Of a stretch of 64,000 nucleotides of DNA, positions 10,819 through 32,500 are shown piece by piece. The DNA lies in assembly GCA_031551405.1 (NCBI GenBank), contig JAVBNQ010000005.1:33743-97742 (forward strand), given 5' to 3'. The notes under the pieces are model-generated. The model made no database searches. It was not told the origin of the DNA and worked only from the letters and a program-made list of their open reading frames with translations. How positions within the stretch are numbered: position 1 is the stretch's first letter; every line of letters starts with the position of its first letter. The DNA is from a bacterium. Lineage in GTDB: Bacteria > RUG730. The translations under genes were made by a program, and so were the position numbers.

Positions 10819-13800
10819 TTAAAACTCCCAATTGAGTCTTACGTCAAATCCTTGTTCAGAATAATATTTTTTTGTCTCGCTTATGTACGAAAATCCTAAA
10901 CTATATTGATTTAACATTTTTATATCTAATCCAATTCTCACTCTTAAAACATCTCCTGATTCTATGCCTTTTATCTTCCAAGTCTCGCTTCCGCCAACAA
11001 ATTTTCCTTCGCCTTTCGTTTCTTTGTCTCCTACTCCAAATCCATAATTAACGTCTATTATTCCAATTAACGTACTCATAAACGAATTATCAAACACAAC
11101 TTTTTGCGCAAACTTCACTCCGATTGGAATCTCTCCTACATTCATATCAAACTGCCTTATTTCCCTCGTCACGCTCGCGTCTCCTTTCTCCATAAATCCG
11201 TCGCCATACATCTTTCCCACATTCAACCCAATATGCGGCATTATTTGTCCACACCAGCTCTCTGACTCAAATTCCTTAGCCAAGATCCCTAACTCTCCAT
11301 TCGCTCCAACATAATTCAAATCATATTTTCCTTTTGCTTCGGTCTTTAAAAACTTGTAATACGTATTCTCTTCATTCGTTGTATTTCCAAACTCAAGTCC
11401 AACATTCGCATAATATTTTTCTCCATCATAAGCTCCATACAACGCTCCTCCAAATCCTCTCACCTTCATAGTCAGAGTTTTATCGTTCGCAAACAATTCT
11501 CCTTCGTCATACTGCAATGCTCCTCCTACCAAATATTCACCAATAAACCTGTCGTATCCAAGGGTAAATCCTTTTGGCTCATATTCGTATTCTACTTTTT
11601 CTGCTTGGGCTTTCTGTTCAATCTTTCGACTAGAGTACATTCCCCAAATCTTTTGCGGATATCCCTCGTTATGTCCCAATGTCGCCATCGTACCTATAGA
11701 CGCATATTCTGTAAACGGATCTATAGTATCTCCATAATGAAAACTGTCCAATCTGCTATCCAATCTACCTCTTAGCGTCTTCATATGTTCCAAAAGAGTA
11801 TCTCTCGTACTCATCATCGCACTTCCCTCCAGCTCAACTCCCAGCTTTTCCAATTCCAACGCCAAATCCTCAGAAATCCCTCCAGTCGCATAAATATCCT
11901 CAAACATTTTTCTTTCTTTATTCGGTAAATTCGGATTATTCCTGTAACAATCGATCGCCTCCTTAAATCCAAACGCATCTTTCAATGCCATCAAATTTAT
12001 GATTAAATCAAAATTTTTACCAGTCAAATTGTTCGCATTTTCTTCATAATAAACGTCAATTAAATTGTTGAAACAAGAAAAACTACTTTTTTTCCCCGGA
12101 ATATACGAATTTTCATTATTCGTAACTATAGCATTTTCTAAAATCGTTTTACCTGTCTTTAATGATACAACATCTATAATATTCACTTGCAATATCACTC
12201 CATCTTCTACTTTTACTGTTTCAGCTGACAATTCCGTAGTTTTAGATGTACTAAAAAATGGCACAAATGTTGCATCTTTTTCAAAAATTAATTTTGTATC
12301 ATAATTCGGATTTAAAAATAATCTTTGGCTTTCTGTCATATCCAGTACACCTTCTTTTACCGTAAAACTTCCATTCGACGCTATCGAATTTTCTCCATAT
12401 AATTTCAAAACTCCTTGCCCGGTTTTCTTAATATTAACAAAACCATTTCCTGCGGATGTTTGTATTGAGTCTTTAATTTCTAAAAATTTTCCGTCATTTA
12501 TATCAAAATTTATATAGATTTTATTCCCAACTTTTTTCGCGTCCAAAAACATAAAATTTGATATTCCGTTTGCAGTATTCCCAAACCAAACGGTTTTATC
12601 ATTCGCAAACTCGTTTATTTTGAAATTCAAAGACGCATTACCTTCTACATAAATTGCTCCGCCATTTACTCCGGATGCATGATTGTTTATAAAAATTGGA
12701 TTCAAAAATTCAACACTATTTATATCACTCATAGCTAATGCAGTCATATAAATCGCTCCTCCACTTTTCGCCTCATTATTCGAAAAAATTACTTCACTAA
12801 ATTTCACATTGGAATTATCCAAATAAAGCGCTCCGCCTTTGTCTCCGGATTTGTTGCTGTCAAATATCGCCGCATCCTTAAAAACTGCCATACTATCTGC
12901 CAAAAACATTGCTCCGCCATCAACCTCTGCGCTGTTGTAACGAAACGGTACGCTTCCGTAGAACAAAACTTTCGAAGCATCAAAAAAAGCAAAACCGCCG
13001 CTGCCGTTTAACGCCGTATTTGATGTGACAACAACATTCGTAAACGTATGTGTTCCGATAAGTACATAAAGAGCGCCTCCATTTGCCTCAGCAGCATTAT
13101 TGCTTAATATCACATTATTCATGTTCGATTTAGCTAGGGGATTTGTTGATCTTAACACAGATCCGGACGTTGCGATGTAAGCGCTATCTATCGTCAAATT
13201 ATTTATTGTTAGAGTCGTTGCATCAACAAGATTAAAAAGCGAACCGCGCTGGAAAGTAGTAGTATCTTTCAAGACTCCCGATATCACGCTGTGTGAAGCA
13301 TCATTGTCATATCCTTGAACCAACACGCTTCCTCTGGCCGTATCATCAAGCGAAGCTCCTAAATGATAAATGTCCGGCTGATTAATAAAAAATGAAAAAT
13401 TAAAGCCTCTAGTACCGGAATATATATTAATTTTATTCAAGGAATATTCATCAGCCTCTTTTATTACCGTAAGCTCTACTCCGGTTTGATCGCTATCAGT
13501 AGTGAACGCATATTCGTAAACCGTCGTGGCTATGACAGATTGCACGGAATTTAGAAAATGAAGCCCGCTGAGCACCGTAGAACTGTAACTTCCGGACAAA
13601 CCGCTATCGAGGTTATCATTAACAATCTTTATGAATCTCAAAGAAACTGTATCTGTGCTTGCTTGAGTTACGAGTTTATCTGAAGAAAATGATCCGGTTC
13701 CCGTACTGTTATTAAAGCTTATGGTAAAATCAAGCTCGGAATTCGAAGTACCCAAATTATTGAATGTCACGGTTCTTGTATTGTTCAGGCTTGTGGTAAG

Positions 13801-16800
13801 GTCTAACACCGCATTATTGAAAAAATATGCGGTTCCGTTTGTATATGTGTTTGCGCCAAAAGACACCTTGGAATTTTCAAAAATAACGGTATTGGCATTT
13901 GTGTTGCCGAGACTAGTGGAAAGCAAATAATTGGATTTAAAAGATGCAAAAGAAGCTGTTCCAAAATACGCAATCGCATCACTGCCGGTAAAAGATAGAT
14001 TGGAGGAAGAGACGGTAGTAAGAGGAACATCAGTATTGTAATGCTGAAGTGTGCCTGTACTGCCAAGCTTTACGCTGTAGTAATATGAATCTCCAGTAAC
14101 ATTGAGCAATGCGTTGTTTGAAACATTATTTGTCCCGGCAAACATCTTGCCTGAAGAACTGACTATTATTTCTCCGCCGGTCTCATTTAAAGTTCCGGTA
14201 AAACCCGAACTGTCGCCGTTTATAAGCAGACGTCCGTCATTTGACTTGTTTATTGTCCCAATACCTGCTATTCCGCCTTCTATAACAACATCATTCAGCG
14301 TACCGTTAATATTTATGCTACTCGCAGCATTATAAATATCATTGCCTAATCCGGAAGCCGAATTATTAAAAAATACAATATTCCCCAAAAAGGAGTTAAG
14401 ATATAACACTCCTAAATTATATATTGCTCCGCCGTTACCACCGGATTTATTTCCTTCAAAAACGCCGGCATTTATATTGACTGTGCCTCCACTTGAATAA
14501 ATAGCTCCACCGTTGCCGGTTGCGCTATTGTTATAAAAAAGACTACCATTTGAAGTTATGGTTCTTGTGTTATATACAGCTCCTCCGGAAAGAGCAGTAT
14601 TCGACGAAAAAATAATTTCGGAATCCAAATTGAGCGTTCCGGAATTATAAATAGCTCCACCACTGGACGACGCAGAATTTTTAATAAAATTCACAGAAGA
14701 GACATTTATAATCGAATTTGCACTGTTATTATTCCATAATGCACCACCGTTAAGCGCAGAATTACTGATAAAATCACTGTCTGTAATACTGAGAATATTA
14801 GTCGCAGAAGTTGTAACATGATAAATGGCACCACCTGAACCTGTCGCAGTGTTATTTGCAAATAAACTGTAGTCGATAGTTATGAGGCCCGTGTTATAAA
14901 CTGCGCCGCCGCTGCTTGAAGAAATATTGTAACTAAACTCATTAGTGTCTATGTTTATCGTTCTTGTATTATATATCGAACCGCCGTTTACTGCCGTATT
15001 CGAAGAAAATGTGTTTCCGTAATTTAAATTTAAAAGTCCGGAATTATATATTGCACCGCCGTTTGACGACGCGCTATTTTGTGTGAAATTCGATGAAGAG
15101 ACATTTATAATCGAATTTGCACTGTTATTATTCCATAATGCGCCGCCGTTAAGTGCAGAATTACTGATAAAAGCGCTGTCTGTAACACTTAGAACATTGG
15201 TCGTAGCCGTTACAACATGATAAATGGCTCCGCCATACGCAGTAGCCTGGTTATTCATAAATACGCTATCACATATTGCTAGCGCGCTGTTGTTATAAAT
15301 CGCGCCGCCTAAACCCGTAGATAAATTGCTAGTTCCTGACGCAATATTTGTAGTAAACGCGCTTCCTGTAATTGTAGAGGAAGCAGTATTATAAATGGCT
15401 CCGCCGTTGCCAGTAGTTCCGCTTACAAATGTTGCCGTATTTGAACTAAAAACGACATTATCAACCTTTCCGCCTCCTTGATATATCGCACCGCCGCTAC
15501 CCGCGCTATTCCCTACAAACGTTGAAAAAGCTATCGCATAACCCATACCGTTTGAAGCAAAATAAACGGCTCCACCGTACATCTTGGCGCTGTTAGTTTG
15601 AAAAATAGAATTGGTTATTGATGTGAAAACATTTGAAGCATTATGATAAAATGCGCCGCCGCCATTATTGCCGCTGGTCGATAGTGAAGCATTATTTGTA
15701 AACACAGATCCATCAAAAGTTATTGTCGAACCCGCGACATTACTGTTACTGTAAATCGCGCCGCCGCTGACGGCTGCCTGATTTCCTATAAAAGAATTTC
15801 CGGAACCAAACGATAAAACCGCGTTTGTGGTGTTAAAAATCGCTCCGCCGCTGACTGTTGCCTTGTTCCCTATAAAAGAATTTCCAGAACCAAACGATAA
15901 AACTGCGTTTGTGGTGTTATAAATCGCGCCGCCCGAACCGCCGGCAGAATTACCATTGAATGAACTTCCCGTAACACCAACCGATGAATTCACTCCAGTA
16001 TTATAAATTGCTCCTCCGTTACTTGTTGCAGTATTCGTTGAAAACACTACATTTTCTATCGTAACTGATGATATAGATCCGGCAACACCTGCATTGTATA
16101 ATACGCCGCCGTTAGCCGCACTGTTTAAATCAAAAAGTCCGCCATTAATTTTTACTGTCGCTGAAGATCCTGTCTCAGAATAATTGTAAATAACTCCTCC
16201 GTTATTGGTTGCGCTGTTGGCAGTAAAAGTGCTGTTGCGTATGTCAAGCAACGCTTCCGCGTCAGAATTTTTCCCGCCAAAATTATATATTACGCCGCCC
16301 AATCCGTTTCCTGTACCTCCCAGTGCTTTATTTTCTTTAAACAAAGAGCCTTCAATAAATGTTTTGACATCCTTTCCGTAAGCGCTTGGGTTGGATGTTC
16401 CTTGCCATGTATTTTGGGCAATTACCCCGCCCTTATAGGCAGAATTTGAGATGAATTTATTTCCTGAAGAGATATGTACCTCAACTTCAACTGTAACCAT
16501 GGAGGAGACATAAACAAGCCACTGAGTCGTGCTGAAAATAGCTCCGCCGCTAGCTCCGGATGTTCCGGTAGACGAATTATTTTCAAAAGTATTTCCATAA
16601 TCAACGTATAAGTAGCCTTCATTATAAATAGCTCCGCCGCCAGATCCGGAAAAAGTGGTATTAAAATTTCCTTTAAAAATATTGTTTGATAAATGCATAG
16701 TTCCATTGTCGCCGTTAGTAATGGCTCCGCCTACTCCGGCTGAGTTGTTTTCAAAATAACTGTTTTTAATTTCGCCTTTAGCAGAATCAAACACTTCTCC

Positions 16801-17805
16801 GGCAATCCATGCATTAAGACAAACTGCTCCACTATAACCCGTACTCACGCTATTGTTAATAAAAGTTGAGCTGTCGATATAAAGTTGTCCCGCGGCATAA
16901 ACGGCTCCAGAATATCCAGAGCCAGCTGAAATATTTGTATCAAATATAGAATTTTTTATGTTTATCGTCGTATCTTTTCCACCCCCTATTGCCGGACCGT
17001 TTAACTTGGCGATATTATCTTTGAAAAGAGAGTTGTTAACGTTAAGTGTGCCGCCAAAATCTACAAAGACAGCTCCGTATATAGAGTTTGATGTTCCGTT
17101 TTCTATAAATCTAGCATTGCTTATGTCCAAGAGAGACCCAGCTCCTGTGCTGTAGATTGCTCCTCCTCCGGGATGCATTGAATTATCGGTAATGAAAGTA
17201 ACGCTATTGTTTGAAAACAAGGTAGTGCGGTTTACCGGATCAGTTGAAGTTATCGTGAGAAAACCGCCGTTATTGTATATAGCTCCGCCGTAATAATAAG
17301 CCGTGTTATTTGAAAAAGAAGAATTTGTTATAGTCATGGTGCTTCCGTTGGCATTGTAAATCGCGCCCCCATTACCTAAAGCAGTGGTAGCTTTGTTAAA
17401 ATTAAAAACAGAGTTTTTGATATTAACTACAGAATTGCTACTTGTATACAAGGCCGCCCCGGAATTTGTCCTAGTCATGCTGCTGACTTGGATATCTTGC
17501 ATATTAAGTGTTGAAGTAGAACCGAGCGACATTGTAAATCCGGAACGTGTACCTCCGCCGTTTATCATCCACAAATTTGACGCATTAGTACCTTGTATTG
17601 TTTTTGTGCTTCCGGCAGGAAAATTGGAAATGTTTGCATTCAAAACAATATCTGAGCTAACGTTTACAATGGTTATACTACTGCTTACAACAGCATTGTT
17701 GAGTTCTGCTGTATTCGAAACGTTCTCTGTTTGCGAAAAAACGTATCCTACATAAAAACAAAAAAACAGAAAAATGAAAACTTTTCCAATAAGATATTTT
17801 TTCAT
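10819..17805 (-). CDS. Giant autotransporter (2,328 aa) with polymorphic-membrane-protein (Pmp) type repeats and C-terminal beta-barrel domain
   Basis: N-terminal signal peptide; dozens of GGA[IVL] and FxxN repeat motifs typical of Pmp-type parallel beta-helix passengers; C-terminal ~350 aa ends ...DVRLNWEF (aromatic terminus typical of autotransporter barrels). Confidence 0.8.
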   Translation of the reverse strand: MKKYLIGKVFIFLFFCFYVGYVFSQTENVSNTAELNNAVVSSSITIVNVSSDIVLNANISNFPAGSTKTIQGTNASNLWMINGGGTRSGFTMSLGSTSTLNMQDIQVSSMTRTNSGAALYTSSNSVVNIKNSVFNFNKATTALGNGGAIYNANGSTMTITNSSFSNNTAYYYGGAIYNNGGFLTITSTDPVNRTTLFSNNSVTFITDNSMHPGGGAIYSTGAGSLLDISNARFIENGTSNSIYGAVFVDFGGTLNVNNSLFKDNIAKLNGPAIGGGKDTTINIKNSIFDTNISAGSGYSGAVYAAGQLYIDSSTFINNSVSTGYSGAVCLNAWIAGEVFDSAKGEIKNSYFENNSAGVGGAITNGDNGTMHLSNNIFKGNFNTTFSGSGGGAIYNEGYLYVDYGNTFENNSSTGTSGASGGAIFSTTQWLVYVSSMVTVEVEVHISSGNKFISNSAYKGGVIAQNTWQGTSNPSAYGKDVKTFIEGSLFKENKALGGTGNGLGGVIYNFGGKNSDAEALLDIRNSTFTANSATNNGGVIYNYSETGSSATVKINGGLFDLNSAANGGVLYNAGVAGSISSVTIENVVFSTNTATSNGGAIYNTGVNSSVGVTGSSFNGNSAGGSGGAIYNTTNAVLSFGSGNSFIGNKATVSGGAIFNTTNAVLSFGSGNSFIGNQAAVSGGAIYSNSNVAGSTITFDGSVFTNNASLSTSGNNGGGAFYHNASNVFTSITNSIFQTNSAKMYGGAVYFASNGMGYAIAFSTFVGNSAGSGGAIYQGGGKVDNVVFSSNTATFVSGTTGNGGAIYNTASSTITGSAFTTNIASGTSNLSTGLGGAIYNNSALAICDSVFMNNQATAYGGAIYHVVTATTNVLSVTDSAFISNSALNGGALWNNNSANSIINVSSSNFTQNSASSNGGAIYNSGLLNLNYGNTFSSNTAVNGGSIYNTRTINIDTNEFSYNISSSSGGAVYNTGLITIDYSLFANNTATGSGGAIYHVTTSATNILSITDSDFISNSALNGGALWNNNSANSIINVSSVNFIKNSASSSGGAIYNSGTLNLDSEIIFSSNTALSGGAVYNTRTITSNGSLFYNNSATGNGGAIYSSGGTVNINAGVFEGNKSGGNGGAIYNLGVLYLNSFLGNIVFFNNSASGLGNDIYNAASSININGTLNDVVIEGGIAGIGTINKSNDGRLLINGDSSGFTGTLNETGGEIIVSSSGKMFAGTNNVSNNALLNVTGDSYYYSVKLGSTGTLQHYNTDVPLTTVSSSNLSFTGSDAIAYFGTASFASFKSNYLLSTSLGNTNANTVIFENSKVSFGANTYTNGTAYFFNNAVLDLTTSLNNTRTVTFNNLGTSNSELDFTISFNNSTGTGSFSSDKLVTQASTDTVSLRFIKIVNDNLDSGLSGSYSSTVLSGLHFLNSVQSVIATTVYEYAFTTDSDQTGVELTVIKEADEYSLNKINIYSGTRGFNFSFFINQPDIYHLGASLDDTARGSVLVQGYDNDASHSVISGVLKDTTTFQRGSLFNLVDATTLTINNLTIDSAYIATSGSVLRSTNPLAKSNMNNVILSNNAAEANGGALYVLIGTHTFTNVVVTSNTALNGSGGFAFFDASKVLFYGSVPFRYNSAEVDGGAMFLADSMAVFKDAAIFDSNKSGDKGGALYLDNSNVKFSEVIFSNNEAKSGGAIYMTALAMSDINSVEFLNPIFINNHASGVNGGAIYVEGNASLNFKINEFANDKTVWFGNTANGISNFMFLDAKKVGNKIYINFDINDGKFLEIKDSIQTSAGNGFVNIKKTGQGVLKLYGENSIASNGSFTVKEGVLDMTESQRLFLNPNYDTKLIFEKDATFVPFFSTSKTTELSAETVKVEDGVILQVNIIDVVSLKTGKTILENAIVTNNENSYIPGKKSSFSCFNNLIDVYYEENANNLTGKNFDLIINLMALKDAFGFKEAIDCYRNNPNLPNKERKMFEDIYATGGISEDLALELEKLGVELEGSAMMSTRDTLLEHMKTLRGRLDSRLDSFHYGDTIDPFTEYASIGTMATLGHNEGYPQKIWGMYSSRKIEQKAQAEKVEYEYEPKGFTLGYDRFIGEYLVGGALQYDEGELFANDKTLTMKVRGFGGALYGAYDGEKYYANVGLEFGNTTNEENTYYKFLKTEAKGKYDLNYVGANGELGILAKEFESESWCGQIMPHIGLNVGKMYGDGFMEKGDASVTREIRQFDMNVGEIPIGVKFAQKVVFDNSFMSTLIGIIDVNYGFGVGDKETKGEGKFVGGSETWKIKGIESGDVLRVRIGLDIKMLNQYSLGFSYISETKKYYSEQGFDVRLNWEF

Positions 17806-18010
17806 TTTGACCTCATAAATAAAAGACTGCCACCTAACATTAAAATGCTAGAGAAAAAACCGTCTTTATAAATATTGTAAATTAACAAAAAATAAACAAG
17901 TTAGAATTTTTATAGCCGTAGCAACACAACGACAGCATCTGCGCTTACAAAACACATCTAAAATACTATAATTAAATTTTTTCAAAGGTTAAACAAAAGC
18001 AAATAAAAAA

Positions 18011-18070
18011 TTTCTTTTTCGTCAGTTTTTGGTTTGGACGAGCAAAAAAAATGGACAAAGCCGGCATCTA
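18011..18070. repeat. Intergenic repeat element, partial copy C, between the two Pmp-like genes
   Basis: cgtcagtttttggtttggacgagcaaaaaaaatggacaaagccggcatcta aligns with the 3' portion of copy B. Confidence 0.5.
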
Positions 18071-18304
18071 CAAGTTGGGAAAATAACACAGACGTCATTA
18101 GCAAAAAAACAAAAATGTGAAAATTTTGTCATTGCATGTAACACAACGCCCGGAAACCAATCGCACCTTGAGCGAAACACAAGATCTGAAACTGAGATGC
18201 GTCGCTAGTTAAGAATGACGAAAGTGTACTCGTGATGGCTATTAATAAAACTTGGAATTATATTTACTACAACTCCACAACACTTTTTTTGTCTATTATT
18301 TTTC

Positions 18305-21300
18305 CTAGAACTCCCAATTAAGTCTTACGTCAAATCCTTGTTCAGAATAATACTTTTTTGTCTCGCTTGTGTACGAAAATCCTAAACTATATTGATTTAA
18401 CATTTTTATATCGAATCCAAGCCTCAATCTTAAAACATCTCCTGATTCTGCGCCTTTTATCTTCCAAACCTCACTTCCGCCAACAAATTTCCCTTCGCCG
18501 TTCGTTTCTTTGTCTCCTACTCCAAATCCATAATTAACATCTATTACTCCAATTAACGTACTAAAAAACGCATTTTCTAACACTACTTTTTGCGAAAACT
18601 TCAAACCAATCGGCACCTCCCCTACATTCCTATCAAATTGCTTTATTTTTCTCGTCACACTCGCATCTCCAGTTTCGCTAAATCCATCGAAATATATTTT
18701 CCCAACGTTTAATCCAATATGCGGCAAAATCTGTCCACACCAGCTCTCTGACTCAAATTCCTTAGCCAAAAATCCTATTTCTCCTCTCACTCCTACATAA
18801 TTCAAATCGTATTTTCCTTTAGCTCCGGACTGCAAAAATTCGTAATATGTACTTTCTTCATTTGTCGTCACACTATAATCAAATTCGGCAATCCCGTAAT
18901 AAAATTCTCCATCGTAAGAACCATATAATGCAGCTCCAAATCCTGCTAATTTACTACTCATTGTTTTATTATTTACAAACAATTCTCCCTCGTCATACTG
19001 TAATGCTCCTCCAACCAAATATTCACCAATAAACCTGTCGTATCCAAGAGTAAATCCTTTTGGTTCATACTTGTATCCTACTTTTTCCGCGTGGTCTTTC
19101 TGTTCAAGCTTTCGACTAGAGTACATTCCCCAAATCTTTTGCGTATATCCATCGTTATATCCCAATGTCGCCATTGTCCCTATCGATGCGTATTCTGTAA
19201 ACGGATCTGTTGGATCTCCATTATGAAAACTATCCAATCTATTATCTATCCTATTTCTCAATGTTGTAACATGTTCCAACAAAGTCTCGCTCGTACTCAT
19301 CAACTCGCTTCCCTCTAGTTCAAATCCTAGTTTGTCCAACTCCAGCGCCAAATCTTGAAAAATTCTTCCAGTCATATAAATGTCCGCAAACATTTTTTTT
19401 CTTTATTCGATAAATTCGGATTATTACGATAATAATCGATCGTCTCCTTAAATCCAAACTCGTCTTTTAGCGCTTTCAAATTTATTACCAAATCATAATT
19501 TTTTCCTGTTTCTGCTGTCAGGCTTTCTTCAAAATATACATCAACCAAATTGTTGAAATATGAAAAACTACTTTTTTCTCCTGGCACATACGACGTATAG
19601 TCATCTGTCTCTATTGCATCTTTCAATACTGTTTTGCCTGGCTTAGCTGATACCACATCTCTTACATTTATTTCCAACTTAGCTCCGTCTTCTACTTTAA
19701 CGGTTTTGGCCGATAGTTTCGTAATTTCTTTTGAAGTCAAATATGGCAAATACGAACTATCACTTGAAAAATATAAAAGAGTGTTCGCCTTTTTTGCAAA
19801 CCTCAAATTTGCTCCGCTGCTCAAATCAAGAGCTCCTTCTTTTATTTTAAATGTTCCATTCGTCGCTATATTATTTTCACCTCCTAGCTTCATCACTCCT
19901 TTACCGGTCTTCTCAATATTTATCCAGCCATCTCCGGCTCCACTCGAAAATGGATCTCTGATTTCCAACATCTTTCCTTCGCTTATTTCAAAATTTACAT
20001 TGATTTTTGTATTAACTTGTCTCGCTTCCATAAACATAAAACTTGACTCGCCTTTTGCCGTATTTCCTGCCCAAATCGTTTCGCCACTCGCTTTGTCGTC
20101 TATCATAAATCTCAAACTCGCATTTCCCTCAACGTAAATAGCTCCTCCTTCTCCTTCAATCGCTTTGTTGTTCGTGAACACTGCGTTCCTTATTTCCAAA
20201 TTATTTTCACTCGTCACTGACATCGTCGTCATATATATCGCTCCTCCTAATCTTCCCTCATTTGAATCAAAAATCACCTTCTCTCCCCTAAACGTCGCTG
20301 TAGAGTTCCTCATATACATCGCTCCTCCTACTGCGCTCATGCTCAGGTTTCCTTCAAATAATGCCGATCCTTCAAAAAGAAACGAGGAATTCACAGCAAG
20401 TATTGCTCCACCATCCAATCCAGATTCGTTTTTTCTAAAAATAACATTATCCTTAAACTCTACTCCTCCATACCTGCCTAAACCAATTCCACTTGAGTAA
20501 ATAGCTCCCCCAAATGAATTAACACTTTTATTCTCTTGAAATACTGTTTCTCCGGCGAAAATCGCAATAGAATTATTCAAATAAAATGCTCCGCCACCGA
20601 CTTCTGCTTTATTAAATTCAAAAATAGACGTACCCTGAAATGTTGCAGTTGAATCAATAAGATACAGAGCTCCCCCGGAAATATTCGCTTCATTATTTTT
20701 AAAATAGGCATAGTTTTCAATAGTTAATTTTGAAGCATCCGAGTAAATCGCTCCGCCATTTGTATTTGCCGTATTGCCAGAAAATAAAACACCGTTTTTT
20801 AAATTAAGAATAGATCTATCTACGTTTAATGCTCCTCCGTATGCCATTAAGCTGTTATTAGTCTCGAATTTAGTTGCTCCTTCAAAGCTTAAAACCGTAA
20901 GTTCCAAATGTATAGCGCCTCCAGCAAGTACCGCCGCATTACTCGAAAATGTTGAGTCACTTTTAAAAGTCGCTGTTGACTTAGATAAATACATTGCTCC
21001 ACCGGCAGCGAGGGTGCTTTTATTGGTGTCAAATTTTGACATGCCTTCGAACGTTAAATCTGATCCAAAAGAAAATAACGCTCCTCCATTTGACGTTGCA
21101 GTGTTGCTACTGAAAAAAGAATCTGCTCTAAAAATTCCTATTGAACTTGACAACATCATTGCTGCCCCTGAAGCTCCATTGCTATTGTTATCAAATAATG
21201 CTATCCCTCCAAAATCTAGTTTTGAAGAACTGGCATACACAGCTCCGCCATTATTGGAGGAAGATGAATTTTTTGAGAAAGATGTTAAATTTTGAAAACT

Positions 21301-23874
21301 AACTGTTGACCCCGTCAAATACATTGCTCCACCGCTTGTTTGGGCTGAGTTATTTTCAAAACTAGCCTCAGCTTGAAAAGTTGCTGTAGAATTCAATAAA
21401 TATATTGCTCCGCCAGAAACTTTGGCTTCATTAGCTTCAAAGCTCGCATCTCCTCCAAACTCTAATTTTGCGCTTTCCAAAAACAACGCATCACCAGACG
21501 AAACTAATGACTTGTTATTTTTAAATTCTGCGCTAGTAAAACTCAAACTAGATCGATTTATCGGAGCCACATAAATAGCACCCCCTGAACTAGTACTTTT
21601 ATTGTTATCAAACAAAGCATGCCCTGTAAAAGAAATATTGGAAGCATTATATAAGTGAAATACGCCACCGGATTTATCTGTTTCATTATCTCTGAAAGTC
21701 GCGGTTGAAAAAACAATCTCAGAATTATCAAGATATCCAACTCCTCCTCCAAACGTTTGTAAACTGGTAGCTTTATTTCTTTCAAACAAAGCTTCGTCTA
21801 AAAATGTCAATTTTGAGTTTCCAATTATATAAATAACACCGCCAGGCGCTTTTGCGGCGTTATCAGCAAACAGAGCAGTTGAGTAAAATGTTACGCTAGA
21901 TTTGTCTAGATATAGAGCTCCTCCTCCAAACTTTGTACCAGGATTACTTTGACTCGTACTCTTATTGCCAATAAACTCAGCACCTCCTGTAAATGTAGCG
22001 GTAGATTGATTTAAATACATCGCTCCGCCCGATTGAGTTGTTTCGTTATTTTTAAAGGTCACAGTAGAAAAAGAAATATATGTTGAAGTACTGTATATGG
22101 CGCCACCGTTGCCTGTTCCAGTCACTTTATTCCCTTCAAACCAAGATTCTGAGGAAAATGTAGCGGTAGATTGAAGCAAATACATCGCTCCACCATTTAT
22201 CTTTGCTTCGTTATTTTTAAACGTCACCGCCTAAAAAGAAAGATACGATGAATTACCAGCATAAATTGCTCCACCACTTGACACTATGCCCGTACTTTTA
22301 TTCTCTTCAAACCAAACTTGTCCGGAAAATGTAGCGGTAGATTTGTCCATATAAATTACTCCGCCTGACTGATTAGATGAATTGTTGCTAAATGTTGCAG
22401 TTGAAAAAGAAAGGTATGACGAATTAGCTGCATATATTGCGCCGCCGTTCGAAGTTGCCGTATTGCTCGAAAAAAATACATTTTCTTTCAATATAGCCGT
22501 CGACTTATCTAAATATATCGCGCCGCCGTTTAGTTTAGATTCATTTTTTTAAAAAATACATCTACAAAAGAAAGATACGATGAATTTCCTGCGTATATCG
22601 CTCCTCCGCCCCCTACTGTAGCAAGAGACTTATTTCCTTCAAATAAAGAGTCTCCGGAAAATGTAGCGGTAGATTTGTCCATATAAATTGCTCCGCCACT
22701 TGTTTTAGATTCATTGTTTTTAAGAGAAACATCATCTAAAAAATAGAGTTTTGATTCAGTTTTTGCATTAATCGCTCCACCGGCCGAACCTGTACTTTTA
22801 TTCCCTTCAAATAAAACGTATCTATTGAATGTTGCAGTTGCATTAACGACAACTAGCGCTCCTCCGATCTGATAAGCTTCGTTATTTTTGAATGTTACAG
22901 TAGAAAAAGCAATCGTTCCATTTGCTAAATATACTGCGCCGCCGCCACCCATAATAGTTGTATTTGTACTTTATATTACCTTCGAATAGCGCTTCTCCTG
23001 TAATATTAGTGTTGGATCCAGATAAATACATTGCTCCACCAGTGTTAACTGATACATTATTTTTAAAAATCACATCTATAAAATCTACTTTTAGTCCACT
23101 GCCGGCATAAATCGCTCCGCCGCCGCTTGTTAAACTTTTATTCCCTTCAAATAAAGTAAAATCTGTAAAATTTAACGATGAGTTTGCAATTGAAATACTA
23201 ACAGCTCCTCCTGAGAGCAATGCGGAATTATTTCTAAATGTTACGCTTGAAAATAAAATACTCGATTTTTGAGTTGATGACGGGTTTGTGCCGCCTCCGG
23301 AATATATTGCTCCTCCATTTCCTCCGGATCCGGCTTTATTCCCTTCAAATAAACTTGCCCCTGAAAACGTAACGCTAGAACCCTCGATATAAAACACACC
23401 CCCATATCGCATACCGTTATTATATAAAAACTCCGAATTATTAAAATTGACACTGGACTGATTAATATAAAAAACCACTCCATCCGGATCATTACTGTCT
23501 ACGCTTGCCGAAGAAAAAATTATACTATCTATAGTGACTACGCTATTATTATTAACTTTAAAAATTCTTCCCTTCACTGTCGAGCTACTGACGGTCATCT
23601 TAGTAGTTGAGGATTTCAAAATAATGTCTTCAAGCCCAGAAATTGGAAAACCACCAGAAGCAATGATGCTTTTGTCATCTTGATACAAAATAACACTGTC
23701 TCCTGTCAATAACACACCCGCATTCAAGAATTCTTGCAAAGTGTCATAATAAATTCCACCTACCGGCTGTCCGCTTCCAATATGATACTCTGTTGCAAAA
23801 ACTTTCGCATTAAACGTAAAAAAGAAAAGCAAATTACAGAGAATTAGCGAAATACATTTTTTTAAATTTTTCAT
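18305..23874 (-). pseudogene. Pmp-repeat autotransporter paralog, disrupted by two homopolymer frameshifts, one other frameshift and one in-frame TAG
   Basis: ORF-track fragments 22882..23874 (with signal peptide), 22530..22952, 22231..22491, 19372..22227 and 18305..19393 form one colinear Pmp-like gene; the last fragment is a near-copy of the beta-barrel domain of 10819..17805. Confidence 0.7.
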
Positions 23875-23900
23875 TGATGGCTCCTGTTTTCAACTTAAGC

Positions 23901-25430
23901 TTAATGTTTAAAATGCCTTTCGCCAGTAAAAATCATACTAATTTTGTTTTGATCGCAACACTCGACCACTTCATTATCTCGAACAGACCCTCCAGGTTGA
24001 ATCACGCTCGAAATACCGTATTTCGAAATCATTTCAATCGAATCCTTGAACGGGAAAAAAGCGTCCGATGCCAAAACCGCTCCTTTTAAATCGAAGCCAA
24101 ATTTTTGCGCTTTTGAAATCGCAATTTCTACGGAATCAACTCTACTCGTTTGTCCGGCACCGATACCAATTATCGTCTTATTTTTCGCTAAAACAATTGC
24201 ATTTGATTTCACATTTTTACATACAAGCCAAGCAAACTCCAAATCGCTAATCTCAGTTTCCGTCGGGTTTTTCTTCGTGATAATATTTTTTTCAACTTTC
24301 ATTATTTTATCTTTTTCTTGAGCCAGAAATCCGGAAAAAACCATTTTATATTCGACCTTATTATTTGAATTTACGTTAATTTTCAAAACACGTAAATTTT
24401 TTTTTGCTTTCAAAACTTCGAGAGCTTCAACGTCGTATCCTGGCGCAATTATGCATTCCGTGAACAAATTCGTAATTTCGAGCGCAGCCTCTTTGTCCAA
24501 AACAACATTTGTCGCGATAATCCCTCCAAACGCACTTACAGGATCCGTAGACAAAGCCTTCAAAAACGCATTTTTCAAATTATCACTCGAGCCAACTCCG
24601 CAAGGATTATTATGCTTTACAATGACTACAACTTTTTCCTTAAAATCAGACGCAATATTCCACGCGGCTTCAAGATCGATCAGATTATTATACGACAATT
24701 CTTTCCCGGACAATTGCTCCCACGAAAAAACGTCATTATTCGCGTCTTTGTAATACGCTGCTTTTTGATGCGGATTTTCTCCATATCTAAGCTCGAATTC
24801 TTTGACTAACGTTTTATTGATTAGAGATGGAAAATCTCCATTCTCAACTCTTTTTTCTGCTAAATAATTTTGAATAAAACTATCGTAAACGCTCGTAGTA
24901 AAAAAAACCTTACTTGCGAGCTCGCACCTGGTTTTTTGTGAAATCTCACTATTTTTTTTGAGTTCGGTAATCACTTTTTGATAATCATTTGGATCACAAA
25001 TTACTGCTACGTCTTTATAATTTTTTGCACTCGATCTGAGCATACCAGGTCCGCCAATGTCGATGTTTTCTATCATTTCTTCATGCGATGCACCCTTTTT
25101 TAACATTTCGGCAAAAGGATACAAATTCACGACTACAAGGTCAATAAACTCAATATTATGTTCGTTTACCTGTGAAATATGAGAGTCTTCATCGCGCTTT
25201 GCAAGAAGCGCGCCGTGAACTTTTGGATGCAGCGTTTTGACTCTTCCATCTAAAATTTCTGGGAATCCCGTGAACTCAGAAATATCTTTTACAACGAAAC
25301 CAAGTCCTGAAATATATTTTTTTGTTCCGCCGGTAGAAATTATTTCTACGCCAAAGTCGACTAATTCTCTTACTAAAAAATCCAGATTGGTTTTATCGGA
25401 AACACTTATAAGCGCTCTTTTTATCTGCAT
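23901..25430 (-). CDS. purH: Bifunctional AICAR transformylase / IMP cyclohydrolase
   Basis: 509 aa; N-terminal MGS-like domain (RALISVSDKTNLDFLVREL...GVEIISTGGT) followed by AICARFT domain. Confidence 0.9.
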   Translation of the reverse strand: MQIKRALISVSDKTNLDFLVRELVDFGVEIISTGGTKKYISGLGFVVKDISEFTGFPEILDGRVKTLHPKVHGALLAKRDEDSHISQVNEHNIEFIDLVVVNLYPFAEMLKKGASHEEMIENIDIGGPGMLRSSAKNYKDVAVICDPNDYQKVITELKKNSEISQKTRCELASKVFFTTSVYDSFIQNYLAEKRVENGDFPSLINKTLVKEFELRYGENPHQKAAYYKDANNDVFSWEQLSGKELSYNNLIDLEAAWNIASDFKEKVVVIVKHNNPCGVGSSDNLKNAFLKALSTDPVSAFGGIIATNVVLDKEAALEITNLFTECIIAPGYDVEALEVLKAKKNLRVLKINVNSNNKVEYKMVFSGFLAQEKDKIMKVEKNIITKKNPTETEISDLEFAWLVCKNVKSNAIVLAKNKTIIGIGAGQTSRVDSVEIAISKAQKFGFDLKGAVLASDAFFPFKDSIEMISKYGISSVIQPGGSVRDNEVVECCDQNKISMIFTGERHFKH

Positions 25431-25764
25431 AAAACTTCCTTTTTTTCGATTTTTTTTTTAAAATTATATGAAGAATTAATGTAGCAAAATATCCATCGAG
25501 AAGCAATAAAATATTTCAAATATATATATATATAAATTTTGTGAGGGTCAATTGATTTTTTCATGATACCAAATAATAAAACAAAAAAACGCCACTCAAA
25601 GATTCAATTTTAAAAAAAATATTAGAAAAAATCAGTTCATACACGAGGAGAAAAATTTGGCGTAACCGTAAAAGGAAAAAACAATCAAAAAAAATTTGAA
25701 ACTTTTTGCATAAAAAAGTCTCTAACTAGGCGAAAGAGCTCTCAAAAAGAGGGAGGATCCAAAA

Positions 25765-26517
25765 ATGAAAATTGTAAGCTTAAATCCTACAACAATGAAT
25801 CTAATAGTCGAATATATGAGCTTGCCCAACTCTGATGTTTATAAAAAAATTTTATTTGAAAAAATAAAAAATACTGAACTTGGCCTCGAAGCTCTAGAAA
25901 GTCAACAAAATGTTCTTCAAACTTTTAAGACTTTAAGCTCTCCTGAAATACCTAGTTCAGCTTCCATTACAATAACAGAAAAACTCCAAAAAATAAAAAG
26001 CAAGAAGCAAATTAGTTCTGCCAGTGATATTGCTTATAAATTTTTAGCTACACTGAAAACTGCTCTACAAATAAGTCTCGTAACAATTGGAGCGTTTTTG
26101 ATTGGAGTTGGAACAATCGCTTATTTTGTAAACCCTGAAAAAAACATTCAAAATAACAATATCTCATCACCTGCTTTTACTACTAACATTAATTCAACCT
26201 TATCAAAAACTTCTAACACATCTCTAAATTTTCAAGGGAACATCACTTTGGACTCAATCAAAAGTTTTGATTTGGAAAAAAATGAAAATCCACAAAATCT
26301 AAAAGAAAACTCTTTATATGCATTTCAAGGTGAATTAAAAAAATATAAAGCTATAACAAAAGATTCTGAATCTAAAGATGTTTTGGAAGTCTTGCAAAAC
26401 GCTGAGAAAGAGCTCGATAAAAGTTTCATAAATACAAATAAAATCGATAATTATATATATTACGCAGTCTTATCTCAACATGACGTAAAAATTTTATCTG
26501 ACGAAGAGTTAGACTGA
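25765..26517 (+). CDS. Hypothetical single-pass membrane protein (250 aa), first gene of the giant-ORF operon
   Basis: GGGAGG RBS upstream; one hydrophobic helix (LQISLVTIGAFLIGVGTIAYFV); stop lies 13 nt before the start of the 14.2-kb ORF. Confidence 0.55.
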   Translation: MKIVSLNPTTMNLIVEYMSLPNSDVYKKILFEKIKNTELGLEALESQQNVLQTFKTLSSPEIPSSASITITEKLQKIKSKKQISSASDIAYKFLATLKTALQISLVTIGAFLIGVGTIAYFVNPEKNIQNNNISSPAFTTNINSTLSKTSNTSLNFQGNITLDSIKSFDLEKNENPQNLKENSLYAFQGELKKYKAITKDSESKDVLEVLQNAEKELDKSFINTNKIDNYIYYAVLSQHDVKILSDEELD

Positions 26518-26530
26518 TAGAGGGGGAAAA

Positions 26531-29500
26531 ATGTTTATAAAAAATTTAAAAATTACAAAATGTTTGGCGTCATTCTTGGTTGTAACGACTTTTACATGTT
26601 TTATCTTGAATGACTACACCTATGCCCAAACTCCTGCAAAAATATTGCCTTCTATCAGCGAATTACGTAAAGCAAGGGGATATGACAAAACTTTTACAAA
26701 CATCGGTTTTAGAGAAGAAATTGCGATTAATCAAAGCGCTGATTTATACGCTAAAAAAATGAACACAAATTATGCTAATCAGCAAACAAAAATTGAAAAC
26801 AATTTAAAAGCAAAAAAAGAATCTGCTTGGGCAACTGCCGAGAAAAAAACAAATGAAATAAAACAAACTGCCACATTAAATAGAGAACAATTAAATGTAA
26901 ACTATGCAAAAAATCTTGCAGATTACAAATCAACATATTCTGTTCAAAAAGCTAAACTTGCAAGCGATTTTGACATAAAAGTTGCACAAGTAGACAAAAA
27001 TTTGGCGAGGCTTAGAGACGTATCCGCAATAGCTGCAAAAAAAATTGATACTCAGTCCGGTATTAACAAAATAGGCAGCGTAGTAGCCTCTGGTATTATG
27101 AAACCTGTACAAGGGATTATGAGCGGTCTTACATCTGTAGTCGGTTTCTTTTCAGGAAAAGATAATAACCCTCTTACAAAAATAAATGACAAAATACAAA
27201 ACATTGATAAAGATTTGGCTGATTTAAAAAATTCTAAAAACGACAATATGGCTTCTATTCAAAAAAATACTGCTGATCAAATAAAAAATTTAGAGAAAAA
27301 AAAGAAAGATCTGCTTGAAGCTAAAAGTGCATCACTTACAAATATGGACAAAAGAAATGACGAAACTTTGGCAAATATGGAGCTTTCATTCAAAAATGAA
27401 ATAGAAGCCGTAAATAATCGTGAAAATTCTTACATAGCGAGTTTGGTGAATAGTACAACTGATGAACTTGCAAAACTAGACGGTGAAATAAAATCCAGAC
27501 TTGAAGATTTGTACACACTTACAAACTCAGAGCTGGAAAATTATTTATTTGGAGACGATGGCTTATTTAAGAAAGCTTATGAATACGATGACAAAACAGC
27601 CTTACGAAATTTAAAGTCTGATCAAGATAATTCCAATCGTGAAATTCAAACTGACGAAAAAAGCGGTGGTTATATTGGAAATTTAGCTAACTATATGGGA
27701 GTGGAAGAGCAAAAAAGGGCATTTGCAAGTAATCAATACTTAGAAAAAGCAGAAAAACTGCTTTTGTCAGGAGCTAGTGATGGTACGAGAAGAGCCGGTG
27801 AATTTGCTGCAGCAGCCGGTGTAGTTAGCAAAGATGCCCAAGTTTTGATGCCACGCGATTTTTCTGATGCAAGTTTGGCTCGAAGCGGCGCTATAGAGCT
27901 TAATATGGATCAAGGCGAAGCCGCAGGCACCGTCCGAGATAACAAAGTAGCAAATATAGACGCATCATTCTTAAAATCCCAGCAAGAACTTGCCGACTAT
28001 TCTGACAGCATAGTCAAATATTCCGACGAAGTTACCGGTTTTCTAGAGGATACAATCAACAATTTTGCTGATAATTCGAAAAATGAGATGAATGATTTTA
28101 CCAACAAAACGGTCAAAAAGAATGATGAAATCAATCAAAAAGAAATACAAGCGCTTTTGGCATTTGTAAAAGAACTGCAACAATATATGGATATGGTCTG
28201 GCCGGAGTCACAATCTGCAGGCTATGAGCGAGCTACTGAAGCATTAAAAGAAGCCGCTGAATTATACTTGAACGCGTCAATTGATACCCTTGCTATTATA
28301 CTTGCTGTAGTCTTAGGAATTGTCGGTGGATTAGTTGCGACTATTATAGGTGCAATATTTCTTATAACTACAGGAATTCCTATGATATTTTCCGGTATTT
28401 TAACTCCCTGCGGAATTGTACAGGTAGTGGCCGCTGTAGCTAGCTTAATAATCGGTATTACCGGAGTAGCTCTTGGTATTTGGGGAATTATATCAGCCAT
28501 AAGTGAACGTGAACAATTAAAAACTGCGCTCGAAATAGCAAGTAATAATGTCAAGGTTTTAAACGATTTGTTGCCGGATCCATCAAAAAAAGACTGGCCT
28601 GAGAACACACCTAGTGAGTACAAAGTTTTCATGGATGCAGAAAAAAATTATAATTCAGCTATGGGCCAATTTAAAGTAATGTTTTTCAGACGTTTCGGCA
28701 TAGAAGGCCTAAAAAAAGTCAGAAACAAAATAAACCAAATAAACAGGTTATTAGGAAAAAAAGGCATCTCTGGACTGACTCATGACGAATTATTAAAATT
28801 ACAAGAACTACTCTTTTTCTTCAAACCTGCTTCTAACGATAAACTCCTAAAAAGATCGATGGAAGGACTGAAAAATACTTTTAAATCATATCAAGAGGCT
28901 TTAGAAAACTTCAAAAAATCCACAAAGACTGTAACATACACATTAAAAGAGCTCAAAGATGGAAGCATTGTAGAAACTACTTACACAAAAACTATTTGGG
29001 AGGCTTATCAAGACAAACAATTTTGGGGAGTTGTCGCCAGCGAATTAGATATGGCTCTAAACAATGCATACGTATTTGATATCGACGCAAATGGAAATGT
29101 AATAAAAGTAGATAGATCTGATGGATCAACTTACACTGAAGAATATAAGGATCCAGAAACCGGAGAATGGAAAACAGTTACTAAGAAGGGTTGGAGTGGC
29201 TTTGCAAATAAAGCATCTCAATCTGGAGATCGTTTTTTTTCTGCTATAAATAATGGCTTCACTAAGTTTATAGATGCAACAGATGCATTCTTCTCTGGAG
29301 TAATATCTGGTGTAATATACGGGGTTACTTTTGGTCACGTCAAGGTAGATAAATTTCCTACTTGGGTCAAGGGGATAACGACATTTATTCCAAATTTCTT
29401 CAAAGCTATAGTAGATATGACTTTTATGGGATATAACCTCACCTTGCATCTTGCAAAAGGGTTATCTCAGAATGGTGTTTTGAAAGGTTTACAAGATTTT

Positions 29501-32500
29501 GCTCTCGGAATGGCCTCTTTCCCTCTTGGCATTATTGAAAATGCGATTGGTATGAAACAGGGAACATTCTTAGATCTATTCAAAGGAAAAACTCACAGTG
29601 CAAAAGAAATTTGGGGCGAAGGAGAATACTGGAATCCCGGAGCAGCTGCAGGAACTTTAGGTTTCACTATTGTTATGATGATGGGGAGCCCTTCCGGAGC
29701 TTCTTCTATAAAAGCTTTTGTTAGTAATATTAAATCAGCACTTTCGTCAATATGGAACGCTATTAAGTATGTTGCAGTGAATGGAATATGGGCCGGATTA
29801 AAAGCTTCTTTCAAAGTTGTCGGATCTGCTCTAGGAAAAATAATAAATTGGACGAAATCCCAATTCAATTTCAAAACCGTACTAGGGAATGGTTTTAAAG
29901 CCGGAGTTAGTGCAGTTTTACATAACGTTTTATCAGGTGTTAAAATTGGATTAGGGGGTTTAGGAATCGCTGCTGTAGCTGTCTTAGGCGCAGCAGGGAG
30001 TATAGCAGGTAGCATAGTATTTGGCTTAGGAAAGAGTTTACTTACAGCGACTAAAGCTCTTGCCACTACTGCCTCTAAATATCTTAAAAAATTCTATAAA
30101 GAATCTTCTATAAAAAGTCTATTTAAATGGGCTTCTAAACAAGTTACTCCTAGAAAAAGTGCAGGAGCATTGCTTGCAGCCATATTATTAACCCCTGTTT
30201 TAATCGTATCTCACGTATTAGGTATTACACAAGCCATAAAACAGCTTCATACAGGTTTTGTAGGTTTAAGAAAAGAATATAAAGCAATGCAAAAGGTATA
30301 CAATTCTACCGGTTCTTATGTACAAACACGAAATGGAATGCCTGTAAACTTAAGGACTCAATTCATTCAAAATACTATCTCTTATGGACTGCAAGTTCCT
30401 CAAGTTTTAATTAACACTGTTATGTCTGTAGCGTTAGCTCCCCTTCTTATCACTAGCCCCCTTCTTTTTATAGGAGTTAAAATAGGTCACGTTTTCTGGT
30501 CGGAAGTTATCTTAGGGCAGAGAAAATTACGGGCGATGCAAAAAGAGCAGCAAAAAGAGCAATCTCGTGGAGCCATCAACTCTCAAAAAACCCAAATTGA
30601 ATCCGAAACCAATGCTCAAGCAGTGCAAGCTTCAGCAAGAAATCTTCGTGATCACGCGAAAGCTTTCGGTATAGAAGTTTTCGACAAAACAGGAAAAAGC
30701 TTAGGAGTAGTTAGCTATAAAGTCTTCATGGAAAAAATGATTAGTGGAGAGATATCCAGCTTTGCAGTAAATCAAGGAGGCTCTAAAAACGCAATATCGC
30801 TTGGTATCGGAGCACGCGAAGCCTTGACTAGAGATTATTTGGCATCACGAGATAATGCCAGTTTAACAAGACTACTTGCCCGTAATAACGGTAATAATAA
30901 ACTAGAGGCTTTGGTCGCGGCAGAGCGAGTTCAACGAAGCACCATAATCTTAAGAGAATATAACGCACAAAGACAAAAATTAACAGGTCAGTCAGCTATT
31001 AATTTTCTAGAACAAATGCTTAATCAAAATAAGTTACGAAGCAAGGTGGCCACTTCTGCACAAAAAGCCTTTTTAAAAATGCAAAATGCAGCTATAAAAA
31101 CAGAGCTCGCAAATCTACATGCTCAAGCACTTGCTGCAAGAATAGAATTCTTATTTAGTCAATCTAAGCTTGATCCTAAGATTGTTGAGCTACTTGATTC
31201 TAATTTAGGAATATTAGATTTCTCAAAAATAAAAGCCGGTGGTCTAACACGTAATGCTGCAGAAACACTTGTAAGACAAATGGGAGATATTTTGGGAGTA
31301 GTTTCAAAAAAATATCAAGAGAGCTGTTCAACAGGAAACAAACAAATCATAAAAGACTCAAGCTCTGTAGTCTCAGCAAGATTTAAAGAAATAGTAAACA
31401 GCGAAAAATTTCAAGAAATTTTAAAGATTGCAAGCCTAGCAGAGAGGCAACAAAAAATAATGGATTATATGAAAGAGTTGAAAGCAGTTGAAAGCGCTAC
31501 TCCTCCAACTGCTTTGGAAAGACTAGTAATTGATAGGATGACGCAAGTTCTTAGAGATAATCCTTCAATTACTCCTAAACAGCTAGCAAAAATGGAAGTC
31601 CAACTGCAAAAAGAAACTGTTTTAGCTCTAGAAACCGGAGCTCTTGTTTATAACGGGTTTACAAGTTATAACAACATTGCTGACGGTATAAAACAACTAG
31701 GCGTGCGACCTGATTTAGAATTAAATAACCAAAGAAAAGCAGTGAAAGCTACGACGGCATTAAATGAAATTGAAATTACAGCTCATCATCAGACTGTTGT
31801 TAGCCAACTTAACGAAATCATAGCAATGAAACCTGAACTCTTCAGCAAGAACCAAGGTCCCGCAGAAGGAAGAATTGAGGCACGAAGAAAGGCTAATTCA
31901 GATTTTATAGCTTCAGTACGCGAAAAATATAAAAATGACCCAATTGGCAAAATACTTGCAAAAAGACTTGAGTTTTTATTGGAAATCAACGTTTACAACA
32001 ACCAAGGAATTTCTGCAAAGGATATGAAGAATTTCACAAGTCTCCTCAAAGAAGAAGTTACTTTCGCCTTAAAATCCGGCGATATAGTTCCTGCTAATGG
32101 GCGTTTTATCTCGCAAACTCAAATGGAGGCATACCTAAAAACTTTTGCAAGCGAAGCCGAACTTATGCGGCATGCACAAGAAACCTTCAAAGTTCAAAAA
32201 CAAAAAGAGGCTTTAGATAAAAAATATGAGGGGAAACAGTTTGAAAAATATTCTAGAAGCAAAAGAAACGCAGCCCAAGATTTAGTCAAAGAATGTCTTG
32301 TTATAGGAAATATGGGAGAAAAAGAAAGACAAACTGCTATTGAAGCTCTTCAAAAACAAATATCTGATATAAAAATTGAAAGAGACACCGAAAGTCCAAG
32401 CATGAGAAAATTATTAAATCGACAAGTTGATGCATTAGAAATGTTGGTAAGCTCAATAAAAAACAACGATGTTGCGAGGATAAAAGAGGCTGTAACAGCT

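Follow-up and report, generated by a model that had tools for sequence, protein, structure and literature searches.

A probable pseudogene of a surface autotransporter lies on the minus strand of a bacterial contig (JAVBNQ010000005.1), within a stretch of 64,000 nucleotides (nt) that was analysed at full length and is called the window here. The gene runs from position 23874 to position 18305, next to purH. One base has been inserted into it, one base has been lost at each of two other sites and one codon has become a stop, such that no remaining piece has both the signal peptide and the barrel. We take this broken copy to be a real pseudogene, inactivated recently, of a classical (type Va) autotransporter with Pmp repeats, with a probability of about 0.8. 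An earlier interpretation of the DNA, made without database searches (the sequence-only reading), had described an eroding Pmp-like autotransporter paralog broken at four points. That description is backed by the domain content, by the colinearity of the pieces and by comparisons with an intact paralog and with sister modules of the same gene.

The locus consists of five colinear minus-strand open reading frame (ORF) pieces in three frames. Fragment 1 is in frame over 22974..23874; its listed ORF (22882-23874) has 330 amino acids (aa), the final 30 of which are out of frame, and it displays a Chlam_PMP match by itself (E=9.5e-12). Fragment 2 covers 22557..22972 (listed ORF 22530-22952, 140 aa). 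Fragment 3, at 22234..22543, is open between the second and third lesions. The listed ORF of this piece (22231-22491) has 86 aa as counted from its first start codon, and the open frame extends upstream to lesion 2. Fragment 4 (19401..22230; listed ORF 19372-22227, 951 aa) carries the bulk of the Pmp-repeat passenger together with the linker, and fragment 5 (18305..19392; listed ORF 18305-19393, 362 aa) carries an alpha-helical linker and the translocator, and ends in ...NWEF followed by TAG.

Four single-base edits, i.e., removal of one T, addition of one A to each of two runs and conversion of one TAG to a sense codon, are sufficient to give one stop-free ORF of 1856 codons. The GGA and FxxN motifs, spaced 27-28 aa apart, continue without interruption through lesions 1-3. 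From base composition alone, one stop would be expected per 12.7 codons and the probability of 951 open codons is ~1e-34; thus the colinearity of the pieces is not a chance effect. The start of the gene is well formed: the ATG is found 26 nt past the purH stop codon, and a Shine-Dalgarno sequence, AGGAG, is read directly in the sequence at 23881..23885 (minus strand), 6 nt 5′ of the ATG. A ribosome-binding site and a signal peptide are present on the first piece only. The possibility of five independent small genes was rejected, because the internal starts have neither. The restored ORF and the motif periodicity thus confirm that the five fragments belong to one Pmp-like gene, and the expected positions of the signal peptide (at 23874) and the barrel (at 18305) agree with inspection of the translation and with a match to the Pfam autotransporter family PF03797.

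Each lesion was compared with paralogous DNA. Lesion 1, at 22973, is one extra T in AAT AAA AGT ACA that produces a +1 frameshift and is not in a homopolymer; the coding-strand context is GAA GGT AAT A[T]A AAG. With the T removed, AAT AAA AGT ACA reproduces the exact codons of the sister modules at aa 242, 355 and 522, which places within the interval 22971..22977 the extra T that the sequence-only reading had noticed there. Lesion 3 is an in-frame TAG at 22231..22233. Sister modules have Ser at this position (TCT or TCA), before T/A-V/A-T-F, in agreement with the Ser proposed earlier; a change of TCG to TAG would be the simplest origin of the stop codon.

The other two lesions are each one base short and each produce a -1 frameshift. 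Lesion 2 is in a T6A7 run at 22544..22556, where a sister module shows AAA AAC AAT GAA TCT and the broken copy AAAAA-AATGAATCT. The missing base aligns with C (FKNN/LKNN), and N-N is found at this position in 11 of 16 modules of that type. Lesion 4 is in an A8 run at 19393..19400. Alignment of the paralog sequence AAAGAAAGAAAAATG with AAAGAAA-AAAAATG of the broken copy gives a 1-base gap, and the missing base aligns with the G of the paralog AAA GAA AGA AAA ATG. The reading frame at this point is continuous in protein alignments of both the paralog and the one outside homolog, P0248. The counterparts of the missing bases in paralogous DNA are C and G, and the A7 and A8 runs may thus have come about only through the deletions. 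Loss of an interrupting base and contraction of an older run are two equally simple histories for these sites. The one-base deficits described in the sequence-only reading are therefore present at both runs, but homopolymer contraction is only one of the ways in which they may have arisen.

The restored protein has the layout of an autotransporter. A Sec-type signal peptide of 27 aa (23794..23874, minus strand; MKNLKKCISLILCNLLFFFTFNAKVFA followed by TEYH) was recognized by inspection of the translation. It displays a basic n-region, a hydrophobic core and a VFA cleavage motif, and is the only one among the five pieces. The Pmp-repeat region, at 20125..23367 on the same strand, corresponds to about aa 170-1250 and is predicted to form a beta-helix passenger. 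The 1856-aa protein matches Pfam Chlam_PMP (PF02415) with E=4.3e-62 and TIGR01376 POMP_repeat with E=1e-38. It has 33 GGA[ILVMF] and 45 FxxN motifs at a spacing of ~27 aa, which make up ~40 Pmp half-repeats.

The autotransporter beta-domain is at 18368..19135 (minus strand), residues 87-342 of the 362-aa piece. It matches PF03797 over profile positions 1-255 of 255 with 96.1 bits (E=3.8e-27) and TIGR01414 with 32.6 bits against a cut-off of 16 (E=4.5e-8), and the restored protein ends in ...RLNWEF, with a terminal Phe. An hmmscan of the whole 1856-aa protein missed PF03797, though the 362-aa piece alone scores 96 bits. Thus scans of the whole repetitive protein are unreliable for its other domains, and the barrels of Pmp-type proteins can escape such scans. 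A search of the PDB with the barrel as a single sequence gave no match and a family profile was required: the profile built from barrel relatives matches the solved translocators EstA, NalP, BrkA, EspP and Hbp with E values of 7e-25 to 5e-9. The AlphaFold (AF2) model of the 362-aa piece has a mean predicted local distance difference test score (pLDDT) of 78.3 and a predicted template modelling score (pTM) of 0.77, with a helix at residues 13-57 and strands at 85-360. When this model was used in a Foldseek search of the PDB, the top 22 matches were all autotransporter translocators (AaaA, EstA, EspP, NalP, BrkA, AIDA-I, Hbp), with E down to 6e-12. Superposition on solved translocators gave template modelling (TM) scores of 0.64-0.75, and 0.70-0.75 on AaaA, EstA and EspP. 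The barrel is probably 12-stranded.

The 261-aa linker (19375-20157) was scanned alone against Pfam at E<=1, and no Pmp middle domain was detected. Because this domain is absent from the linker scan, the ancestral product is classed as a Pmp-repeat classical (type Va) autotransporter and not as a member of the chlamydial Pmp family proper. Passenger and barrel are no longer in one polypeptide, as the signal peptide, the passenger and the barrel have been cut off from one another by three frameshifts and one TAG. Thus the gene is filed as a pseudogene of the type Va family, not as a functional member.

An intact paralog of 2328 aa (P0001), at 10819..17805 on the same strand and 500 nt downstream of the broken gene, served as comparator. 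The two copies can be aligned only over their final 1957 nt, or the last ~650 aa, and there is no alignable DNA between their passengers. The C-terminal module that they have in common (18306..20262, minus strand) shows 76.7% nt identity and 68% aa identity. The spacer between the genes, 17806-18304, is 500 nt of non-coding DNA with no ORF of note, no Rfam match and no convincing terminator. It presumably holds the paralog promoter, and a GAGG is found 5 nt before the paralog ATG. A promoter and terminator scan gave no more sites than were found in shuffled sequence, and a tRNA was the sole Rfam match.

The comparison of the two copies also bears on the age of the lesions. For the C-terminal modules, the ratio of nonsynonymous to synonymous divergence (dN/dS) amounts to 0.29, at a dS of 0.73; in the barrel the ratio falls to 0.17-0.20. 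A relative-rate comparison in which P0248 served as outgroup gave 52 unique aa changes for the broken copy and 36 for the intact one, a non-significant excess (p=0.09). The fragments are still open for hundreds of codons. About 5% of the possible substitutions in the ORF create a stop, so that one nonsense hit corresponds, as a rough estimate, to ~0.35% neutral divergence, compared with the dS of 0.73 accumulated since the duplication. On the basis of the dN/dS of 0.29, the non-significant excess and the small neutral divergence relative to dS, inactivation appears recent relative to duplication, and most of the divergence probably arose under purifying selection. Long-standing relaxed selection was rejected on the relative-rate result and the dN/dS value.

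The possibility that the gene is intact in the organism, and that some or all of the lesions are consensus errors or the product of strain mixing in a metagenome assembly, should be considered. Homopolymers are a classic site of base-calling error, and two of the four lesions are in A/T runs. The gene is rich in repeats. Lesions 2-4 rest on a single assembly, and in this singleton lineage there is no second assembly that covers them. A second assembler does cover lesion 1: Logan contig SRR23967709_112767 is 100% identical to window positions 22660-35430 (12.8 kb), lesion 1 included, and breaks at 22660 because its end lies inside a 37-nt exact internal repeat. However, the reads behind this contig may be those from which the deposited assembly was built. 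The genome has the appearance of a draft assembled from a metagenome, and in such a draft strain variants can be mixed in the consensus. The start codon and ribosome-binding site are still perfect and no large deletions are present, and a sequencing artefact would look equally so. Spurious pseudogenes that result from assembly error have been documented, and many annotated pseudogenes are assembly errors (PMC11017572).

The remainder of the window argues against an artefact. The 34 other genes, which make up 54.7 kb of coding sequence and include ORFs of 14.2 kb and 7 kb, are all unbroken; the housekeeping genes show full-length family matches, and overlapping pairs of neighbouring ORFs proved to be distinct complete genes. 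These other genes have 117 homopolymers of at least 7 bases, 35 of them of at least 8, and all are in frame, whereas two of the four such runs of the broken gene are out of frame (P=8e-4). The probability that four uniformly placed lesions would all fall in this one 5.6-kb gene is 7e-5. In addition, lesions 1 and 3 are not homopolymer errors. Misassembly by repeat collapse was rejected, since the internal repeats are ~65% identical with the exception of the one 37-mer. Reassignment of TAG was likewise rejected, as TAG terminates 6 of the 35 window genes, the broken gene included. Thus the case for lesions 2-4 as real mutations is a statistical one, and an artefact is considered unlikely as the explanation of the broken frame.

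A giant ORF of the window, at 26531-40768 (plus strand), serves through its intactness as an internal control for assembly quality. It encodes 4745 aa without interruption and has no significant Pfam domain (DUF3857 comes closest, but its E=0.008 misses the cut-off). Its orientation is divergent from that of purH and the Pmp pair, and a 250-aa ORF is found upstream of it at 25765-26517.

Two further explanations accept the four lesions and hold that a full-length protein can nevertheless be made. In one of these, which the sequence-only reading had offered for the two homopolymer sites, the gene would be a phase-variable contingency gene, turned on and off by slipped-strand changes at the A7 and A8 runs in the manner of the chlamydial pmpG poly-G tracts. 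Two of the four lesions are indeed 1-base deficits at A/T runs, and a surface-protein family with a paralog is a typical setting for switching. Homopolymer-driven phase variation at simple-sequence contingency loci occurs in Neisseria, Haemophilus and Campylobacter, and one-base deficits at mononucleotide runs within a surface-protein gene are a feature that the broken gene has in common with these loci. However, the runs consist of A/T instead of G/C, they are short, their frequency is that of the background, and they are accompanied by two lesions that slippage cannot reverse. Because the TAG and the non-homopolymer T insertion are irreversible in this way, no combination of tract lengths yields a full-length protein: even if both runs were corrected, breaks would persist in the ORF at 22973 and 22231-22233. 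The density of runs of at least 7 bases is 2.14 per kb in the intact genes and 0.72 per kb in the broken gene. Many runs of the intact genes exceed A7 and A8 in length; the paralog has none of 8 or more. As the missing bases align with C and G, the runs were possibly absent before the deletions occurred. Pmp-family adhesins of Chlamydia do phase-vary through homopolymer slippage, which made this alternative a reasonable one, but the tracts described there are stretches of poly-G or poly-C that are 8-24 bases long (PMC6740158). A contingency locus is therefore not borne out, and has very little probability. If tract-length polymorphism or mosaic alleles between the copies existed, the locus would be a modestly interesting example of surface variation in an uncultured phylum.

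In the other explanation the full-length protein would be made by recoding, that is, by RNA-polymerase slippage on the A runs, ribosomal frameshifting and stop read-through. Runs of 7-8 A can sustain low-level transcriptional slippage, and both A-run lesions need one additional A, the direction that slippage commonly supplies. But a single mRNA would have to undergo four independent events. The shift site of lesion 1 offers no slippery P-site pairing (ATA to TAA), and a TAA stands right there in the target frame; TAG acts as a regular stop in this genome, as seen from the 6 of 35 genes; and none of the sites is conserved in any homolog, with the paralog and P0248 both continuous at lesion 4. 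Programmed frameshifting at the three indels was rejected on the lack of slippery pairing at lesion 1 and the requirement for four events, and recoding as a whole is given next to no credence.

A last alternative concerns the relation of the broken copy to its neighbour. The copy might be retained as a silent cassette, a donor or acceptor of segments in gene conversion with the downstream paralog. The two copies are in tandem, in the same orientation and 500 nt apart, and have six exact blocks of 32-43 nt in common in the barrel region. By a runs test (P=0.002), the synonymous differences between the barrels fall in clusters, and the last ~85 codons (18308-18562 compared with 10822-11076) display 88-93% identical codons with a dS of 0.22, compared with 55-72% and a dS of ~1 elsewhere. 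This 3′ tract of low dS may be compatible with gene conversion between tandem copies, and it is the sole hint of anything beyond simple decay. However, the apparent conversion tract falls in the conserved barrel, whereas antigenic variation would act on the variable passenger, over which the two copies cannot be aligned. The patchy identity could also reflect codon or structural constraint, or a conversion older than the inactivation, and a single pseudogene does not constitute an archive. A cassette role is thus quite improbable. Were it true, the locus would be a small pseudogene-cassette system that varies a surface autotransporter in Elusimicrobiota, and we know of no pseudogene-cassette system in this phylum. 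Exact direct repeats are also present within each copy, one of 37 nt in the broken gene (22321-22357 and 22653-22689) and one of 47 nt in the paralog (14696-14742 and 15095-15141), and these reflect recently duplicated Pmp modules.

The host is an uncultured Elusimicrobiota bacterium of a very poorly sampled lineage. The DnaK of the window is 84-87% identical to DnaK of metagenome-assembled genomes (MAGs) of Elusimicrobiota (nearest 87%). Exact look-ups retrieved eight window proteins, and each of them is alone in its 90% identity cluster in a collection of 15 billion sequences. The sources of the sequence are one NCBI contig of 164,664 bp and the Logan assembly of SRR23967709. An exhaustive HMMER search of 1.84 billion representatives yielded P0248 as the one outside homolog of the whole C-terminal module, with 39% identity; the remaining matches were distant autotransporter barrels at the C-termini of larger proteins. 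P0248 (734 aa, from outside the window) has a truncated N-terminus and a 68-aa Lys/Asn/Glu-rich extension beyond the usual terminal ...SYSF, and may itself be a damaged or read-through gene.

Other searches for relatives were negative. When the 600-aa C-terminal module was used in a word-indexed search, the only matches were fragments from the same genome. No relative was found in scans of genome contigs with the barrel and with a 3-sequence alignment of the C-terminal module, nor a match to this alignment in metagenome contigs, and the barrel module pattern is absent from 185,579 GTDB species representatives. Metagenome contigs had no match to an exact DNA pattern across lesion 4 with a variable A-run, and exact-protein look-ups of fragments 3-5, the paralog and P0248 gave no contig. 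Hypothetical "ON" alleles, with fragments 4 and 5 fused or fragments 2 and 3 fused, are absent among the 15 billion proteins.

The best outside matches to the protein show 26-33% identity, are to the repeats only, and none is named chlamydial. The best non-self passenger matches, P0002, P0004 and P0008, are PMP-repeat proteins of 2000-2400 aa with near-perfect 55-aa tandem repeats, without a signal peptide and without a barrel. They are encoded at L002:10001-17221 on a 2.7-Mb contig (ENA ERZ25878582) that looks eukaryotic, because neighbouring genes carry reverse-transcriptase and endonuclease domains that resemble those of long interspersed nuclear elements (LINEs).

Among known systems, the chlamydial Pmp proteins have the same arrangement, a long passenger with repeated GGA(I/L/V) and FxxN motifs (PF02415) and after it a type Va barrel. 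As in the Elusimicrobiota pair, their paralogs are found side by side, with some copies broken by frameshift or nonsense mutations. The chlamydial pmpG paralogs combine duplication, pseudogenisation and slippage at the long poly-G and poly-C tracts, and 121 of 374 full-length pmpG genes have 1-9 frameshift or nonsense events per gene (PMC6740158). The broken gene differs in its host and in the lack of a Pmp middle domain match in its linker. Its barrel and linker module has a single, 39% identical homolog elsewhere, and its lesions are not at long poly-G or poly-C tracts and give no sign of reversible switching. With the type Va autotransporters EstA, AaaA, NalP, EspP, BrkA, Hbp and AIDA-I the gene has in common a signal peptide, a passenger, an alpha-helical linker and a barrel that ends in Phe. 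However, the barrel has only 11-16% sequence identity to the solved structures, the passenger is of the Pmp-repeat type instead of a lipase or protease, and the gene is interrupted. Of the same repeat type and phylum-level neighbourhood, with lengths of 1800-3200 aa, are the PMP-repeat outer-membrane proteins of Endomicrobia and Elusimicrobiota MAGs, annotated as "autotransporter domain-containing" or "OmpA family". Some of these (P0063, P0093 and P0114) have PF03797. But their identity to the broken gene is ~27-32% and confined to the repeats, their anchors are OmpA-like or unrelated barrels, and none is an ortholog.

By analogy with its family, the ancestral 1856-aa protein would have been exported through Sec by its signal peptide, the C-terminal barrel would have inserted into the outer membrane, and the ~1100-aa GGA/FxxN-repeat beta-helix passenger would have been displayed on the cell surface, probably as an adhesin. 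The largest product expected from the broken copy would now be a truncated periplasmic protein of 330 aa. The barrel piece could not be exported, and it is presumably the intact 2328-aa paralog downstream that now supplies the function.

In annotation, the five ORF pieces ought to be merged into one pseudogene and not kept as five proteins; four of them are currently held in the protein collection as separate entries of 330, 86, 951 and 356 aa. The locus is of little import beyond this correct annotation. It also serves as a worked example of how a real pseudogene can be separated from homopolymer artefacts and from phase variation when neither reads nor sister strains are at hand. With the broken copy read as a pseudogene, the course of duplication followed by decay that is documented for the chlamydial Pmp adhesins occurs also in a Pmp-repeat autotransporter pair of Elusimicrobiota.

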